Origin: a virus | Reading direction: 5' to 3' (one strand) | Length of the DNA stretch: 64,000 bases | UHGV virus genome: UHGV-1363143 | Part shown: positions 6,050 through 55,018 of the stretch, in pieces | Numbering within the stretch: the first letter of the stretch is position 1 | Layout of the letters: each line of letters opens with the position of its first letter | Made by a program: the position numbers and the translations under genes | The notes under the pieces: model-generated | Told to the model about the DNA's origin: nothing | Databases searched by the model: none | The model's input: the letters and a program-made list of their open reading frames with translations, nothing else

Positions 6050-8218
6050 TTAAAGCTTTTCTTTTTGAGCGTTAGCATAGATTTTTGCGTCGCTATCATT
6101 ATTATGAGCAACTCTATCAGCTCTTTCAGCTTCCTTACCTGCACCAAATCTTTCATCTAAAGCTAAATATCCTGTTATTCTAGATACACCTTGTATTTTT
6201 CTAGAACCACAATTAGGGCATTCTTCTTCAGTTCTTAATAACTGTCCACATTCTTTACAGTATCTAACGTGGAAGTTAATTCCGATATATCCCATATTGG
6301 TATTAGTGAAAGTCCAAGTAATTATTTTTTCTATTTCTTCTGGTGTAGGATAATCATCTAATTCAATATAAGAAATTCTTCCACCATTACATAATTCGTG
6401 GAATGGAGCTTCCTTTTGGATTTTCTCCTTAACAGATATCTTAAATCCTGGATTAATATGATATCCATTAGTATAGTAAGCATGGTCTGTTACTCCTTTT
6501 ATTTCACCGTACTTAGCTTTGTCTATTGCAATAAATCTACCGCAAAGACCTTCTGATGGTGCAGCATAACAGCTCCAATTTAATTTATCTATTTCTTTAT
6601 ACTTATCACAGTATTCTCTAATCATTCTTACTACAGTATCAGCTATTTCTAAAGCTTTTTCATCTTCACCATGATGTTTACCGATAGCAGCCATTAACAT
6701 TTCATGTATTCCAATAAATCCTATTGCATAAGAACCTTGTTTTAAGATAGGTTCAATAGAATCATTTGGCCCAATTTCTTCTGCTCCCACATACATATTA
6801 TTTTCAGTTAAGAAAGGAATGTCTTTTCCTTTTAATTGCTTTAATACACTATATCTGTATAATAATGATTCTCTAGTTAAATCAAGCATTTTTAATAAGC
6901 TATCATATAAGAACTTAATCTTTTCTTCATCTGAACATCCAGTTTCTTTTTGGTGTAATGAAGCTTCTATACCTAATCTAGGTAAATTGATTGTTGTTGG
7001 TGCAATATTGCCCCTTCTCTTAGCTCCTTTAGGCCCATTGATATTATCAATAGTACTTGTTCTACATCCCATTGTGCTTATTCTTACTCCTTGCTCATGT
7101 AAAGGTAAGTTATAAGAAGCATCAATATTTAAGAATGTTGGGTTTAATCTTCTTGAAGCTACTTCACAAGCTATTTTGTATAAGTAGTAATATGGATCAC
7201 CAGGATTTCTATTAACTCCTGACTTAACTGCGAATACCATATTAGGGAATATTAATTGCTCACCAGCACCTAATCCTTTTCCATATTCTATTAATGCATG
7301 CTTACATACTAATGCAGCATCGTCATCCTTAGGTAAACCTATATTTAAAGAAGAGAATACTATTTGAGATCCACTTCTTGATTCCATAGTAGATAAATTG
7401 TACATTACTGATTGCATGGCTTGGCCTACAGCTTTATCAAGCTTAGCCTCAACTCTTGCTTTTATAACATCTTCAGGTTGACCAACCATTAATGCTGAAT
7501 ATTCTTCATATATTTCATCTCTTGTAGCTTTTACAAATACAGCCATATCATTATCGAAGTCATCTATACTTTGTCCTCCGAACATTTGATTTTGAGCACA
7601 TTGTAATAAGATACAAGCTAATTCAGCAGCAACATTAATTCTTTTAGCTGGTCTAATTGTTCCGTATGAAGTTTTAAAACCTGTCTTCAATGGTTCTAAG
7701 CTATGAGAGCAACAATTAAATGTTAAGTTAAAAGCATCTAAATCATGAAGATGATAATCTCCTTGCTCATGTGCTTTCGCAATATGTTTAGGCATGTTAG
7801 CTAAGTTTTGCCACTTATTTGATTCAGAAGCTATTCTTAATAGCTTTGCTCCAAAGTTATTACCAACATTACCATTATCTCTATCAGTATGAACACCAAT
7901 CTTTCTAATAGCTTTCATTATGTCAGATTTAGTTTCTCTTACTTCATTTCTTTCTTTTCTATAATCTAAATATGCATCTTTAGTTAATCTAAATCCATTT
8001 ACATATATAGCTGTTTGAATGAAATCTTGTAGTTTTTCAACTGTGATTTCTGTTTTATTTAACTCTGATATTTTAGCTTCAACTACATCTAAAATAACAT
8101 TAAGAACTTCAGCGTCTATTATTTGTTTTGCACTTTTAGCAGCATTAATAACTGATGCAGCTACCTTTGTTCTATCATAATTTGTTTTTCTACCATCTCT
8201 TTTTATAATTGTAATCAT
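6050..8218 (-). CDS. nrdD: anaerobic ribonucleoside-triphosphate reductase NrdD
   Basis: 722 aa with a C-terminal Zn ribbon (CKECG...CPNCG) and the glycyl-radical motif RITGYLA. Confidence 0.9.
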   Translation of the reverse strand: MITIIKRDGRKTNYDRTKVAASVINAAKSAKQIIDAEVLNVILDVVEAKISELNKTEITVEKLQDFIQTAIYVNGFRLTKDAYLDYRKERNEVRETKSDIMKAIRKIGVHTDRDNGNVGNNFGAKLLRIASESNKWQNLANMPKHIAKAHEQGDYHLHDLDAFNLTFNCCSHSLEPLKTGFKTSYGTIRPAKRINVAAELACILLQCAQNQMFGGQSIDDFDNDMAVFVKATRDEIYEEYSALMVGQPEDVIKARVEAKLDKAVGQAMQSVMYNLSTMESRSGSQIVFSSLNIGLPKDDDAALVCKHALIEYGKGLGAGEQLIFPNMVFAVKSGVNRNPGDPYYYLYKIACEVASRRLNPTFLNIDASYNLPLHEQGVRISTMGCRTSTIDNINGPKGAKRRGNIAPTTINLPRLGIEASLHQKETGCSDEEKIKFLYDSLLKMLDLTRESLLYRYSVLKQLKGKDIPFLTENNMYVGAEEIGPNDSIEPILKQGSYAIGFIGIHEMLMAAIGKHHGEDEKALEIADTVVRMIREYCDKYKEIDKLNWSCYAAPSEGLCGRFIAIDKAKYGEIKGVTDHAYYTNGYHINPGFKISVKEKIQKEAPFHELCNGGRISYIELDDYPTPEEIEKIITWTFTNTNMGYIGINFHVRYCKECGQLLRTEEECPNCGSRKIQGVSRITGYLALDERFGAGKEAERADRVAHNNDSDAKIYANAQKEKL

Positions 8219-49520: not shown

Positions 49521-50039
49521 ACGAAGATATCCTGTTATGCTTTAATTTGCTTATAGTTTAAAATTAATTATTCTTTATTTCTCTTTGAGTAATTCTTTTA
49601 ATTCTTGACCTAGATATCTTATGTAACATTCTTTTATCTTTTGATCTGAGCTTTGTATTTTGAACTACTATCTTTTCATAAAAATCTAAAGCAGTTGCTT
49701 CTTTCGAATTATTCTGTTTAAATAAATCCATAATGCTATCAATCCTTTCTTTATTCAGAAATTAATTTTGCATTTACATATTTATTATCTAACTTTTTCG
49801 TCATTTACCTCATAAATATAGTTAAACTTCTTTTACAAATATTTTTCCATTGGGAGCAGTATAAAATATATCTCTTTTAAATGACATAAGATAAGAAACT
49901 CCTGGAATAACTAATACATTCATATCTGTAATAATAGTATTTAATTCAAAAGTTGCAATCACTTCTCTTGTATCTTTTTTAAAAATAACTAAAATTTGCA
50001 TTATTCAACCTCAATTTATAATTATTCTCTTTTATATAA

Positions 50040-50068
50040 AAAACCCAGGGCCTTTCGGACACCTGGGT
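50040..50068 (-). terminator. rho-independent terminator downstream of the tRNA operon
   Basis: Hairpin cccagg...cctggg followed on the minus strand by UUUUUU. Confidence 0.5.
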
Positions 50069-50074
50069 ATGATC

Positions 50075-50149
50075 TGGCGGAACTAGTAGGATTCGAACCT
50101 ACAACCTATCGGTTAACAGCCGAGTGCTCCACCTTTGAGCTGTAGTTCC
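50075..50149 (-). tRNA. tRNA-Asn (GUU)
   Basis: Manual cloverleaf with acceptor ggaacta/tagttcc, T-loop GGTTCGAATCC, anticodon loop cuGUUaa, and CCA encoded. Confidence 0.7.
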
Positions 50150-50934
50150 ATAATTCCAGCGTCCGTATGGACCTGGAGATCTCCTTCTATCTTAGATAGA
50201 TGAGCTAATGTAAGCACCACATTTTATAATCCCTTGCATGGATTGGGCAGGCACCATTATTTTTACATGCATGGTTGCATTGACCTAGCTTACTTTTTGT
50301 TCTTTCGGTCTTATTGATTATTACTATCCCACTCGTGAATAGCATATTTGTTTGAAACAATCGCCTGCACAATGCAAGCCCCAGAAAGAGTTTATCTTTC
50401 AAAATTAATGCAAGGTGGGGTGGCGTATCCCACATCTCTAACCATAACAATATATGTAGTATAGACTGCCTGTTTCTACTTCTTGCATTTTTATATCTAA
50501 TTGCTTACTTGAAAAACACGAGCTAATTACATTAGCTACTAAAACTCATAAGCATAAATATACCTTCTTATAAGAGTTCCTAATCTATGTCTAAATAAGA
50601 AGTATATTAGTTTCATAAGGATATAGATTAGGTTTCACCTTACTTTTTATTATTGCTTGAAAAAACCCTAAAAATTACTAAGCAATATATATATTCTTCT
50701 CACTTCCGAAACCAGCACTCCATGTCCTTCGAATATATAGTTTTTTTGTTTCGCTGATCTGGTCCTCTATGCAAAACTTTAAAGGGAAATTTGCTTACCG
50801 CCACAGTTCCTTCCTGCTCGTCCATAAGCTATTAAGTAGATAAATTACTCCTACTTAACTAGTGCGTCTCCAGTGAGCATAGTAAATCAGGCCAATCAAA
50901 TCAGCTAAATACCAGAGGCTTGAGAGGTTCTATT

Positions 50935-51008
50935 TGGAGCTCCTACTCAGAATCGAACTGAGAACAGAAGATTACAAGTCTACCGTTTTACCTTTAAACT
51001 ATAGGAGC
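50935..51008 (-). tRNA. tRNA-Thr (UGU)
   Basis: Cloverleaf with acceptor gctccta/taggagc, anticodon loop cuUGUaa, and CCA encoded. Confidence 0.6.
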
Positions 51009-51164
51009 ATATAATACTTTCGGTGTGCTACAGAAATCTAAGTTTCTGTTAATAGGCAAGGCTGTCTATATCAGGTATTCAGTAATTATGTACACTTTTA
51101 ACTGAACCATACTATATATCCCTACACGCTACTCTTAACTATAAGAACACCGAAAATATTATAA

Positions 51165-51239
51165 TGGTACTCCATGGGGGACTCGAACCCCCGATACACG
51201 ATAGAAAGTCGTGTGGCTTAACCACTTGCCGAATGGAGC
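51165..51239 (-). tRNA. tRNA-Glu (UUC), probable
   Basis: Cloverleaf with T-arm ggggg/ccccc and anticodon stem cacga/tcgtg; the loop cuUUCua has an unusual U37. Confidence 0.5.
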
Positions 51240-51318
51240 ATAATTTGTGCTATCTCTTTTAGCTTGTACTTCGCCAAGGATGATAGCTATCCTTATCTGT
51301 ACAAATTACAGATTTCTC

Positions 51319-51390
51319 TGGTGCAGATTGCTGGAATCGAACCAACCCTTATAATCTTATAGAAAACGCTCTACCTTGAGCTAATCTGCA
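51319..51390 (-). tRNA. tRNA-like element with intact acceptor, D and T arms but no foldable anticodon stem (possible pseudo-tRNA)
   Basis: gcagatt...ggttcgattccagcaatctgcacca carries the right length between the D and T arms, but the segment UUUUCUAUAAGAUUAUA cannot form a 5-bp stem. Confidence 0.3.
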
Positions 51391-52418
51391 TATTATATTT
51401 CCAGAGCTTTCAGATCCTATCTCTGGTACTCAACTTTTGCAGCATTATTGATTCTCTGCTTATCCACATTCTCTTGAATGTATTGAGTTATGCCTGCCTT
51501 GTTTAATGAGTGGCTTATCTCATCTAATAGTACACTACTCTACACCATTGATTATATCAACCTTGCGGGCTGTTCAGGCTGCTACCCCTTATACGCTCTC
51601 CGATATAGAACAATCAAGCTTTTGCGAAGCTATCATGCGCTTCATTCACTTTTCAGTGTGAAGCATTAAGACACTTTCATGCACTACGAGGATGAACTTT
51701 CGCTTTTATATAGAATTAATATCTGTAAATTCTTAAATATTGTTTTATTTCCCAAAACATATAGCTTAAATTCATCATTCATTAAATTTTCAAACTGTAG
51801 ATGTGTCATCCTATCAGCTCGCTTCCCTTTTGAGGAAGTAAATACTGGACACCTACATAGCTTTCACTCAACTAAGTTACTAACTGGTAATAAATCATAC
51901 TCTAGGATACCTCCGTCTCTCAACTTCTAAGGTCCTATTTCATTTTTATTACTGGCCAATGCTCTTGCCTGTTAAACTCGAACTACTAACCTTCTGCTAT
52001 AAATAGTTTATTTCATTAGTTTTGGTGTGTGCTATCTGATTACCAGTCAGAAACTCCTTCAGAGAGTATATCCCCTACTTTCTTACCAGCGTTGCCCATA
52101 AGCGAGCTTTCGCACCTAACTTATAAAACCTTATCCAATAATCGTCTTTATCTCTTCCGCCTACTGAATAACATTTAAATTTATGCAGATTGCTTGAATT
52201 AACCTAATATTTCAAGGCGAGAATTTGTTAAATTCCCTTTACGCACATCACTGTACGCTATTCATGTCAAGCCATGTTTACTTATTTTTTTTATAGAACC
52301 TAGTACAGATTCTTGTATGTAATTCCTACCTCTATTACATACTAGGCTCTTGCCTACCGATGTTTTCCTTATTTAAAACTAAGTACTGAAAAGAAAACTC
52401 ATAACCAAAAATCGTACT

Positions 52419-52494
52419 TGGTGAAGGTAGAAGGGTTTGAACCTTCGGCCCCAGCATTAAAAGTGCTATGCTCTACCAACTGAGCTATACCTTC
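52419..52494 (-). tRNA. tRNA-Lys (UUU)
   Basis: Cloverleaf with D-arm gctcagttggtagagc, anticodon loop cuUUUaa, and CCA encoded. Confidence 0.75.
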
Positions 52495-52501
52495 ATATTA
52501 T

Positions 52502-52578
52502 TGGTAGTGGATATAAGAGTCGAACTTATCACCTTCTGCGTATCAGGCAGATGCTCTAACCAAATGAGCTAATCCACT
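52502..52578 (-). tRNA. tRNA-Ile (GAU)
   Basis: Cloverleaf with anticodon stem tctgc/gcaga and loop cuGAUac. Confidence 0.75.
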
Positions 52579-52584
52579 ATATTA

Positions 52585-52669
52585 TGGTGGGAACTGATGG
52601 AGTCGAACCACCCGAGCTAAAGCAACAGATTTACAGTCTGCCCCGCTACCATCTACGGTATAAATTCCC
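52585..52669 (-). tRNA. tRNA-Tyr (GUA), type II (long variable arm)
   Basis: 85 nt, anticodon loop cuGUAaa, long variable arm. Confidence 0.65.
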
Positions 52670-52763
52670 GTATTGACATTGTTAATTGGCTAAATTATTA
52701 TAATTGTAAATGTACTATACTTACAAAGAACTAGATCAATCTTCGGATTGGTCTTTTTCTTAT

Positions 52764-52850
52764 TGGCAGGGGCTGTAGGATTCGAACCTACGTGGTGTTG
52801 TGCACAATGGTTTTGGAGACCACCGCCCTCGACCTCTAGGCAAAACCCCT
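52764..52850 (-). tRNA. tRNA with Trp anticodon (CCA) and an atypical 15-nt variable arm
   Basis: Acceptor and anticodon arm (gguggu-CUCCAaa-accau) resemble bacterial tRNA-Trp, but the gene is 87 nt with the insert ugugcacaacaccac before the T-arm. Confidence 0.5.
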
Positions 52851-52985
52851 GTAAATCTCCCGATTAGTTTAAAGACATTTATGGGACTGGTCATTAGAGA
52901 GGTCTTATGTATAAATTAAAACGTTATGCATAAATATATTATGTTAACATCTATAAAAAGACTACTGATTTGAAAAACTTTTTTA

Positions 52986-53072
52986 TGGCGGAGAGTCTGG
53001 GACTCGAACCCAGAAGCCATTACTGACCAACAGTTTTCAAGACTGTCTGACTACCAATTATCACAACTCTCC
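52986..53072 (-). tRNA. tRNA-Ser (UGA)
   Basis: 87 nt with acceptor ggagagt/actctcc, anticodon stem acagt/actgt, loop cuUGAaa and a long variable arm. Confidence 0.7.
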
Positions 53073-53090
53073 ATGTTTATAGGAGAAAAC

Positions 53091-53170
53091 GAAATAGGTG
53101 ATAGGAATTGAACCTACACTTACTGCCATCCCTATCTCTAGCTGGCCTTGCTTCATTCTCCTGTTGCAAC
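53091..53170 (-). tRNA. tRNA-like remnant (T-arm-like gtagg-ttcaatt-cctat only)
   Basis: An 80-nt spacer between tRNA-Gln and tRNA-Ser contains a T-arm-like hairpin and a 7-bp aggagaa/ttctcct pairing, but no canonical cloverleaf. Confidence 0.25.
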
Positions 53171-53245
53171 TGGCGGAGGTGGAAGGGATTGAACCTTCGA
53201 ATGATGGAATCAAAATCCATTGCCTTACCACTTGGCGACACCTCT
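53171..53245 (-). tRNA. tRNA-Gln (UUG)
   Basis: D-arm gccaagtggtaaggc (Gln-like), anticodon loop uuUUGau, weak 1-72 pair, and G73. Confidence 0.65.
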
Positions 53246-53446
53246 ATATAAAATGGCAATTTTACCGTTTGCCAAACGTTCTATGGTTTATACAAAAACT
53301 CATATCGTAAAATTTAAACGGGCTTAAGTGCCCTAAATTCTGGCATTTCACCACGGGTATTTAGCAACCCAGGATTTTTATTATTGAATCTAATAAATTA
53401 AGATCCGTTCTAAGCACTGCAAAAAAATCTTAAAAAAATTTCGCTT

Positions 53447-53522
53447 TGGTCGGAGTTACAGGACTCGAACCTGTGATCTCATGGTCCCAAACCATGCACC
53501 TTACCATCTAGGCCAAACTCCG
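53447..53522 (-). tRNA. tRNA-Pro (UGG)
   Basis: cggagtt acceptor, anticodon stem catgg/ccatg, loop uuUGGga. Confidence 0.75.
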
Positions 53523-53531
53523 ATATATAAA

Positions 53532-53623
53532 TGGCGGAGGACACAGGATTCGAACCTGCGGAGGAACTTTCGTCCCTCGAATGCTTAGCAAGCACCTGCC
53601 TTAAACCTCTCGGCCAATCCTCC
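53532..53623 (-). tRNA. tRNA-Ser (GCU)
   Basis: 92 nt with ggaggat acceptor, loop uuGCUaa and a long variable arm. Confidence 0.7.
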
Positions 53624-53713
53624 ATATTAATAGCTCATTTTGGTCAGTTGAGCTAAACTGTAGTCTATAAGACTAAAAAATGAACATTGGAATTTAATAT
53701 TGAATTGAATTAG

Positions 53714-53790
53714 TGGCGACTCACAAGGGGATCGAACCCTCGACCTCTGGCGTGACAGGCCAGCACTCTAACCATCTGAGCTAGTGAGCC
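53714..53790 (-). tRNA. tRNA-Asp (GUC)
   Basis: Anticodon stem ctggc/gccag with loop cuGUCac. Confidence 0.75.
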
Positions 53791-53796
53791 ATATTA

Positions 53797-53885
53797 TGGT
53801 GTCGTGAGAAGGATTCGAACCTCCAACCACCTGAGTCTTGTTAATGGAGCTCCCTCAGTGCGTATACCAATTCCGCCACCACGAC
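53797..53885 (-). tRNA. tRNA-Leu-like gene with an expanded 18-nt anticodon loop
   Basis: Leu-type D-arm gcggaattggtatacgc and good acceptor/T arms, but ctgag-[ggagctccattaacaaga]-ctcag replaces the 7-nt loop. Confidence 0.4.
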
Positions 53886-54000
53886 ATATCTATGTTTCTA
53901 TATTATGTGCCTTCTAAAAAAAAGACTACTCCTGAAAAATGTTTTTTAGATTTTTCGTCGTACTTCATTATTACAAGCTATATTTTTCTTATACACATTT

Positions 54001-54034
54001 GAAAATAAAAAAGCTGGGAATTTTTTATCCCAGC
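54001..54034 (-). terminator. rho-independent terminator after the endolysin gene
   Basis: Hairpin gctggga-N8-tcccagc followed by UUUUUUAUUUU on the minus strand. Confidence 0.6.
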
Positions 54035-54040
54035 CTTATA

Positions 54041-55018
54041 TTACAGCTTTGCTAATAAATCATTAGCTATTGCATTAATGTTTCTTGACCATGTGGTACC
54101 TTCGCAATATTTTGTATTTACATTCCATATGCTAGGTCCATTATAATGAGCTCCTCCTTCAGTAAGGTAAGCAGTATTAATAAGATTAGCTATATAATTT
54201 AAGCTCTCTCCCCAATTATCAAATCTTCTCCATGAGTTACCTTTTTTAACTCCACCAATATTATTATATGTTCTAGCTAAATAAGATCTTCCATGTCCTG
54301 ATTCTTCCGAGTTAAGTGCTATTAAGAATATTGCATTTACATTGTATTTCTTTTCTGCATAATAATATGCTTTTGATAATGATTGTAATGCACTGCCCTC
54401 TAACATTTTATGAATTTGAGACTCTGATAAATTACTTAATTCTCTCAAGTTATAAGGATTATAATGAGGAATTCCATCTACTTGTTTTTGTACTTTTGGT
54501 TCCTTATATACTTCATATGGTGGGTTTTCTTGATATTGTTCAACTAATGACATATCAATAAAACCTTCTTTGCCATTATAATTAATTTTTAACCAGTTCC
54601 ATTGTCTTTCAATTATCTCAAAAGTCATACCTTTTCTAAATAAAAGAATTACTTCTGAATCATAATTAGGTTCTGTTCTAAAACGAGAATAGTCAGCGAT
54701 AACTTGTCCATATTTTTGATGTTCAGTTTTTAATCTTTGCTCTTCTTCTAACCTTTCTTGCTCTAGTCTTTTTTGTTCAACCATTTCTAAATGTTTCTCA
54801 TAAATGTTTTTGGGACTCATAAAAATAGGATTTGTAAGAGATTGGTCTTCTATTGATAGCTCTATTGCTGCAGGTTCTAATTTATTATTAATACGCATGT
54901 TATTACTTGCAGTATCAAAACAATGTACTGGCAAAAATGTAGATGTATATGCATATAAACCAGCTAAGCATTTAGCTAAATGTGTCATAAAAACACTCCT
55001 TTCTGATTTCTCCCTCAT
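54041..55018 (-). CDS. endolysin: N-terminal SH3-like domain + GH73 N-acetylglucosaminidase
   Basis: C-terminal LNSEESGHGRS...YNNIGGVKKG...WRRFDNWGESLNYIANLI matches the GH73 (FlgJ/LytD-type) catalytic region. A central SH3-like segment reads FRKGMTFEIIERQWNWLKINYNGKEGFID. Confidence 0.6.
   Translation of the reverse strand: MREKSERSVFMTHLAKCLAGLYAYTSTFLPVHCFDTASNNMRINNKLEPAAIELSIEDQSLTNPIFMSPKNIYEKHLEMVEQKRLEQERLEEEQRLKTEHQKYGQVIADYSRFRTEPNYDSEVILLFRKGMTFEIIERQWNWLKINYNGKEGFIDMSLVEQYQENPPYEVYKEPKVQKQVDGIPHYNPYNLRELSNLSESQIHKMLEGSALQSLSKAYYYAEKKYNVNAIFLIALNSEESGHGRSYLARTYNNIGGVKKGNSWRRFDNWGESLNYIANLINTAYLTEGGAHYNGPSIWNVNTKYCEGTTWSRNINAIANDLLAKL

Follow-up and report, generated by a model that had tools for sequence, protein, structure and literature searches.

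What does a phage encode in about 1 kb of DNA that carries almost no ORF and lies inside a tRNA array? The question is raised by positions 51391–52418 of the viral genome UHGV-1363143, taken here as a stretch of 64,000 nucleotides (the window, hereafter, is this whole stretch). A preliminary description, made from the letters of the sequence, had noted in this spacer the near absence of ORFs, an enrichment in GC and several hairpins; it proposed decayed tRNAs or introns, or a novel phage ncRNA, advised an Infernal or Rfam scan, and tied its proposal to transcription and to conservation in relatives.

Coding content and composition of the spacer

The ORF listing bears out the first of these observations. 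No ORF of at least 60 aa overlaps the spacer on the minus strand, where the ORF-free run covers 2626 nt (50451–53076), and the plus strand holds a single weak ORF of that size, of 83 aa, which is not present in L128, L132, L134 and L139 (relatives are referred to by their locus numbers). Since it is missing even from relatives that are 93–94% identical to the window, we consider this ORF spurious. The GC enrichment also stands for the spacer taken as a whole—35.4%, versus 30.7% for the whole window and 28–31% for the flanking coding DNA, i.e. the 94th percentile among 1028-nt windows—the stretches of 40–45% pointed out earlier being merely local peaks.

Identification of a GOLLD RNA

The Rfam scan of the whole window was decisive: it returned the GOLLD RNA (RF02032) from 51857 to 51412, on the minus strand only, with 171.8 bits and an E value of 1.6e-46; the match spans the full model (positions 1–416 of 416) and exceeds the gathering score of 150. 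This feature is far beyond chance, and we identify the spacer as a GOLLD RNA gene. The idea of a structured phage ncRNA within the tRNA operon is thus upheld, but not that of a novel one: the family is known and the spacer is a new example of it. When the threshold was lowered to E≤1 over positions 50000–54200, the matches beyond GOLLD were tRNAs and a skipping-rope RNA (50407–50489) only; group I and group II introns, RNase P and tmRNA gave no Rfam match there, in agreement with the inspection by eye for the last three. Within 51391–52418, neither ARAGORN nor the Rfam tRNA model (RF00005, to E≤1) detects a tRNA cloverleaf, and the decayed tRNAs or introns proposed earlier do not show up. The Rfam scan gave no match in the window to ROOL RNA, which we take to be the family RF03087.

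GOLLD RNA, described in 2009 and with a cryo-EM structure since 2025 (PMC12286853), is among the largest ncRNAs of bacteria and phages and builds, in vitro, hollow nanocages made of RNA only. Published GOLLDs have an extra, variable 5' domain of about 300–420 nt (PMC12286853, PMC12990946). The Rfam model represents the conserved 3' domain alone, as does the GOLLD Stockholm alignment of Kretsch et al., so that the 561 nt upstream of the match needed a separate analysis. Altogether, about 880 of the 1028 nt of the spacer are explained by GOLLD with the support of covariation. At about 878 nt without the leader, the RNA also has the total length expected of the family with its large structured 5' domain (about 700–850 nt or more). 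The features are collected in Table 1.

Table 1. Features of the GOLLD spacer and of its immediate flanks (window positions).
Feature	Position	Strand	Basis or remark
tRNA-Lys(UUU), abutting the 5' side	52419–52494	-	ARAGORN; Rfam 73.5 bits
Leader, three hairpins, lineage-specific	52279–52418	-	140 nt, between tRNA-Lys and GOLLD core
GOLLD RNA proper, 5' and 3' domains	51401–52278	-	about 878 nt without leader; Rfam, conservation, covariation
GOLLD 5' domain, second sequence class (class 2)	51858–52278	-	421 nt; conservation and covariation
First four-way junction of the 5' domain	52165–52279	-	top match of the canonical junction CM
Variable hairpin GGACC...GGUAUCC, lineage-specific, last part of the 5' domain	51905–51935	-	
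GOLLD conserved 3' domain, RF02032	51412–51857	-	171.8 bits; about 450 nt with the terminal stem to 51401
Composite hairpin opening the 3' domain: outer and inner stem, loop UCAAAAG	51796–51857	-	Rfam positions 1–62
AU-rich variable linker	51702–51795	-	insert in the Rfam alignment
Terminal stem at the 3' end, CCAGAG...CUCUGG	51401–51426	-	covariation
tRNA-like element, 11 nt past the terminal stem	51319–51389	-	ARAGORN; Rfam tRNA 33–37 bits
Antisense ORF, spurious	51679–51930	+	83 aa; sole plus-strand ORF of at least 60 aa in the spacer

Relatives and conserved 3' domain

We gathered 119 GOLLD loci from IMG/VR by the conserved 3'-domain pattern, syntenic contigs via homologues of the phage endolysin, and further relatives with a lineage-specific pattern in JGI metagenomes and a general pattern in GTDB genomes. 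L121, L122 and L136 carry identical copies of the window spacer (GOLLD 171.8 bits in L121). L128 and L132 are 93.5% and 94% identical across the whole spacer (172.2 and 166.8 bits), L134 is 74% identical (139.1 bits), and L139 (160.2 bits) and the Sarcina-binned contig L163 (117.7 bits) are divergent homologues. In L128, L132, L134, L139 and L163, positions 51401–52278 are conserved as a contiguous unit. Covariation is seen in both halves of the RNA. In all relatives GOLLD lies within tRNA arrays, which agrees with previous reports (PMC12286853, PMC5737381, PMC12990946).

The Rfam alignment of the 3' domain contains the stretches that sign the family: GUAUU...UCAAAAG, GAAAG, UAAUGC, GAGUAG, GUGGAUAAG, GAAUCAAUAAU and CAAAAG; AAUAAU is also found in it, along with these. 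Over five sequences, the 99 pairs of this domain are 97.2% paired versus 31–44% in slid controls, and 30 of them are changed on both sides versus 2–8 in the controls; the structure having been predicted by RNAalifold on the same alignment, these figures are somewhat biased in its favour. In the first composite hairpin, which is P13/P14-like on our reading of the published numbering, five pairs show compensatory changes (helix 2). The linker is poorly conserved and rich in indels across relatives, and ARAGORN finds no tRNA embedded in it; it corresponds to the disordered linker of the env-38 GOLLD that faces the interior of the cage (PMC12286853, PMC12990946). At the 3' end, the hairpin ccagag...ctctgg of the preliminary description proves real, and is the terminal stem of the RNA (51426–51401): it becomes CCGAAG...CUUCGG in L128, L132 and L120, five of the six pairs being changed on both sides (helix 15).

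A 5' domain of a second class

The canonical 5' domain can be recognised in 96 of the 119 IMG/VR GOLLD loci; for env-38 we used the sequence given in the supplement of PMC12286853. Blastn detects no similarity between this sequence and the 5' domain of the window; the Smith-Waterman score of the pair is 53, for a mean of 54 with shuffled sequences, and a profile of 57 canonical 5' domains searched with nhmmer --max does not match the window. Nor do nhmmer profiles of both classes of 5' domains cross-match, even after two iterations. We use “class 2” as a label of convenience for the 5' domain found here. It is conserved from 52278 to 51858 in L128, L132, L134 and L139, and profile iteration extends its conservation to L163, L097 and eight IMG/VR loci, the L012 group (L005, L006, L012, L022, L025, L053, L103 and L106). 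Beside GOLLD 3' domains, it is present in about nine other phage lineages, including other human-gut phages and the Sarcina-binned contig; in every carrier lineage it stands immediately upstream of the 3' domain, the flanks being otherwise variable. None of the relatives with this domain has a sense-strand ORF of at least 45 aa.

In an alignment of five sequences (A4), the 115 pairs of the 5' domain have 97.9% of their cells paired, and in a second alignment, of ten sequences (A5), 55 pairs have 97.3%, versus 35–42% in slid controls; these percentages are inflated because the structures were predicted from the same alignments. The pairs changed on both sides number 29 in the 5' part of A4 (0–4 in slid controls) and 32 of the 55 in A5, and in neither case does any of 500 shuffles reach the observed value. 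Despite the inflation of the paired percentages, the changes on both sides and the contrast with the slid controls are clear. The spacer specifies, on the minus strand, an RNA of two domains supported by covariation: a 5' domain of a divergent class (421 nt) and the universally conserved 3' domain.

Is the class-2 domain related to the canonical one in its fold? The RNAalifold structure obtained on a MAFFT alignment of env-38-type 5' domains is too rough for a helix-by-helix comparison, and the comparison to the canonical fold covered the first junction. In the first 130 nt of canonical domains, an outer helix surrounds a GAAA hairpin, followed by GAUAAAGUG and a pair of hairpins; the first junction of the window is made up of an outer helix GCUU/AAGC, a GUGA-capped hairpin, UAAAGG and two hairpins. 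A junction CM (R1) was built from these first 130 nt in 50 canonical 5' domains. Run with filters off over 51300–52600, it gives its best match at 52279–52165, over the full model (11.2 bits, E 0.013), which coincides with the start of the conserved 5' domain. Its top matches lie at the equivalent position in L103 (18.1 bits), L139 (15.6 bits), L012 (14.8 bits) and L163 (13.8 bits); L134 matches weakly (7.3 bits) and L097 does not match. The CM is thus correct in position for the window and four of the six other class-2 loci, but the link is a weak one, with 11–18 bits and E values of 0.01–0.16 per search. The class-2 5' domain is likely, though not proven, to be a divergent version of the canonical 5' domain.

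The motif gtgcGAAAgc that had been reported as a hairpin does exist (52116–52104), but the consensus fold places it in a conserved junction of the 5' domain, with no tetraloop. The variable hairpin near the end of the domain is absent in L134 and L139. We also considered a kissing interaction in which GGCUU, invariant in the 5' domain, would pair with a 3'-domain hairpin loop of sequence AAGCC/AAGCU; the sequences are compatible with it but show no covariation, and we leave it unsupported. In the ten-sequence consensus, GCUU also pairs with an invariant AAGC inside the 5' domain.

Distribution and detection of class-2 GOLLDs

The 3' domains of L134 (4155–4639, E 6e-37) and L163 (1302–1786, E 1e-30) are clearly those of GOLLD and stay under the gathering score of 150, so that routine annotation would miss such RNAs. 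The Rfam model under-scores this clade, and GOLLD is probably under-annotated in gut viromes.

Searched by blastn in distant mode, the spacer has no match among 50,697 GenBank phages, nor have the L012-type and L163-type GOLLDs; the L097-type GOLLD has one, in the uncultured human-faecal phage MT835469.1. Positions 163535–164188 of this 176-kb phage hold an L097-like class-2 GOLLD (68% identity over 76% of the query), which the record leaves unannotated. In IMG/VR, the endolysin-based locus search retrieved a sister contig only, and an exact 24-mer of the 5' domain had no occurrence; lineage-specific 3'-domain patterns, applied to IMG/VR and the JGI metagenomes, retrieved only the phage of the window and the sister contig. 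Three class-2 loci show a tRNA inside the GOLLD linker: L022 (3093–3164), L025 (2672–2744) and L103 (1572–1645).

Leader, flanking tRNAs and proposed processing

The leader is conserved only in L128 (90%) and L132 (99%), and L134 has about 330 unrelated nt in its place. In the leader hairpin 52342–52315, the window and L128 differ by two compensatory double changes, G-C to A-U and A-U to G-C. A weak paralogue of the leader was noticed in L132 (12222–12330, nhmmer E 5.6e-8), between two tRNAs further upstream; there is none within the window.

The array comprises 14 minus-strand tRNAs, co-oriented with GOLLD and with the skipping-rope RNA. The latter (RF02924, 50407–50489, minus strand) scores 58.2 bits for a gathering score of 36.7 and is followed by a terminator-like hairpin at 50379–50363, a 3' terminator being typical of this motif. 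The skipping-rope motif is also seen in L134 (5251–5330), and the tRNA array of L139 contains a match resembling the Twister-P1 ribozyme (6950–7010, plus strand; 63 bits for a gathering score of 67.2, E 3.8e-12). Promoter-like hexamers are no commoner in the island than in shuffled sequence, and for this reason we claim no promoter.

The tRNA-like element downstream of GOLLD encodes CCA and is intact in its acceptor, D and T arms, with a degenerate anticodon arm (about 4 bp and a 4-nt loop); ARAGORN labels it “Tyr(ata)” or “???”. Its fold is kept in all members of the lineage (L128, L132, L134 and L120). In the other class-2 loci, an ordinary tRNA lies 6–16 nt downstream of GOLLD, and often another one directly upstream. 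The element is probably a 3' processing handle, and may serve RNase P in this way rather than act as a decoder. With the 5' and 3' ends of GOLLD placed according to the flanking tRNAs and to conservation, the simplest model that we infer is an excision by RNase P together with tRNA 3'-end processing. GOLLD would be transcribed as part of the tRNA array; tRNA 3' processing after tRNA-Lys would release it upstream, and an RNase P cut at the tRNA-like element, 11 nt beyond it, would release it downstream.

The phage and its probable host

The phage genes of the window include GroEL, both subunits of topoisomerase II, NrdD, helicases and a glucosaminidase/SH3 endolysin. Near the tRNA array we also noticed, besides GroEL, ClpP, a ClpX-like AAA protein, a peptide deformylase, a ParA-like ATPase and an actin-like (ALP_N) protein. 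Human-gut metagenome contigs, the longest of 238 kb, carry the same endolysin sequence, and the best topoisomerase match among the 50,697 GenBank phages is at 44% identity, which together indicate an uncultured jumbo phage. The closest named bacterial homologues of the endolysin are from Clostridium. The phage has a genome of about 240 kb, belongs to the human gut and probably has a Clostridium-like Firmicute as host.

A sister phage without the 5' domain

The sister contig IMGVR_UViG_3300014583_000001 (L013/L120; also OBZL01000003.1, L137) has flanks about 90% identical to those of the window and a 3' domain 94.7% identical. Its homology with the window ends sharply at 51948, just upstream of the variable hairpin: the sister retains the 3' domain and about 90 nt, the last stretch of the 5' domain. 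Upstream stand about 390 unrelated nt (replaced region L120:11934–12417, or L013:5287–5766), within which a strong Shine-Dalgarno sequence precedes an ORF of 48 aa (L120:12202–12348); the stop codon of the latter overlaps the first retained hairpin. Homologues of this ORF are limited to near-identical copies on five short contigs (P0070, P0071), so that the sister arrangement recurs in other assemblies. The existence of such a phage suggests that the 5' domain may be dispensable. For the GOLLD of Streptococcus agalactiae (700 nt), the full-length RNA forms a 12-mer and the 3' domain alone mainly 10-mers in vitro (PMC12990946); by extension, and as a speculation, the GOLLD of the sister, reduced to its 3' domain, may still function.

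Discussion

With high confidence, the spacer is the GOLLD RNA gene of an uncultured human-gut jumbo phage, whose product would be excised from the tRNA array as proposed above and would assemble into a cage. The known cages are free of protein and homo-oligomeric, made of 10–14 chains that kissing loops and A-minor bridges hold together (PMC12286853, PMC12990946); that of env-38 is a 14-mer by cryo-EM (PMC12286853; PDB 9MEE according to PMC12990946). By analogy with the two GOLLDs solved by cryo-EM, the RNA of the window would form a protein-free, homo-oligomeric closed shell, in which kissing-loop and A-minor contacts would join the 3' domains into equatorial rings, with the 5' domains as caps and the AU-rich linker pointing to the interior. 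Expression of other GOLLDs is reported to climb during phage lytic growth, in work cited by PMC12286853, and in published proposals the cage encloses, or acts as a scaffold for, tRNAs, ribosomes or other cargo.

The likeness to env-38 is extensive: the 3' domain of the window fits the family model end to end, both RNAs consist of two domains and have, past the opening hairpin of the 3' domain, a variable linker rich in AU, both are encoded by phages and adjoin tRNAs, and the 5' domains are similar in length (421 nt versus about 415 nt) and open with a four-way junction in which a GNRA hairpin precedes UAAAG. On the other hand the 5' domain cannot be aligned in sequence to that of env-38, the window has an additional leader of 140 nt, and it comes from a low-GC jumbo phage of the human gut whereas the env-38 type is that of lake and marine phages. 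The GOLLD of S. agalactiae is likewise associated with a Firmicute and has a 5' domain off consensus; it is chromosomal or prophage-borne, and shorter. The mycobacterial GOLLD (Morgado 2020, in the terms in which PMC12990946 cites it) shares the tRNA-array setting, but has a tRNA within its linker, which the window has not. ROOL RNA, also a large ornate RNA of phages and prophages encoded near tRNAs and forming RNA-only cages (PMC12286853, PMC5737381), assembles as an 8-mer and is unrelated to GOLLD in sequence and fold.

Could the locus nevertheless encode two RNAs, a GOLLD limited to its 3' part (about 51948 to 51401) and an independent structured RNA of about 330–470 nt (from 52418 or 52278 to about 51950) that travels along? 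The sister phage, about 90% identical, which retains this 3' part alone, preceded by unrelated sequence and a 48-aa ORF, would fit such a situation, as would the decamers of the isolated S. agalactiae 3' domain in vitro (PMC12990946) and the lack of sequence similarity of the upstream part to the canonical 5' domain. We find this improbable: the upstream domain abuts the GOLLD 3' domain wherever it is found—with the reservation that a free-standing copy would be missed because loci were collected via the 3' domain or synteny—no terminator-like site separates the two domains, the size of the upstream one is that of the canonical 5' domain, and in five loci the model of the canonical junction matches its first junction where expected. 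Moreover the break point of L120 falls inside helix 15 of the 5' domain, a covarying helix, which suggests that sequence was deleted or replaced there, and not that a gene naturally ends at this point.

The explanations that dispense with GOLLD fare worse. An accumulation of decayed tRNAs or of introns, or else a wholly novel phage ncRNA, might be evoked from the location in a tRNA array, from the adjacent degenerate tRNA-like element and from the leader with its three adjacent hairpins; such a reading is very improbable for the spacer, where ARAGORN and Rfam (at gathering scores and to E≤1) give no tRNA or group I/II signal, and is refuted for positions 51401–52278, which account for the 880 nt assigned to GOLLD. 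As for a hidden coding content in small ORFs of either strand, the 83-aa ORF and several ORFs of 40–59 aa are its candidates, but none is conserved even in the relatives 93–94% identical, and substitutions are paired across helices instead of falling at third codon positions; we hold it for scarcely conceivable.

A two-domain GOLLD RNA being the preferred reading, the locus leaves the understanding of the family unchanged and supplies material for experiments. It adds to the family a jumbo-phage, human-gut and Clostridium-like setting, a covariation-supported alignment of a class of 5' domains that sequence searches do not connect to env-38, and a near-identical sister phage devoid of the class-2 5' domain. 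One may tentatively wonder, although we regard it as rather unlikely, whether the cap-forming 5' domain is a module that GOLLDs can exchange or even do without, the sister phage having naturally swapped its class-2 version for unrelated sequence with the 48-aa ORF. Should both forms of GOLLD be functional, their cages would differ in vivo in stoichiometry or openness; and if the module is indeed exchangeable, the two phages would offer a natural isogenic pair for working out the role of the GOLLD cage.
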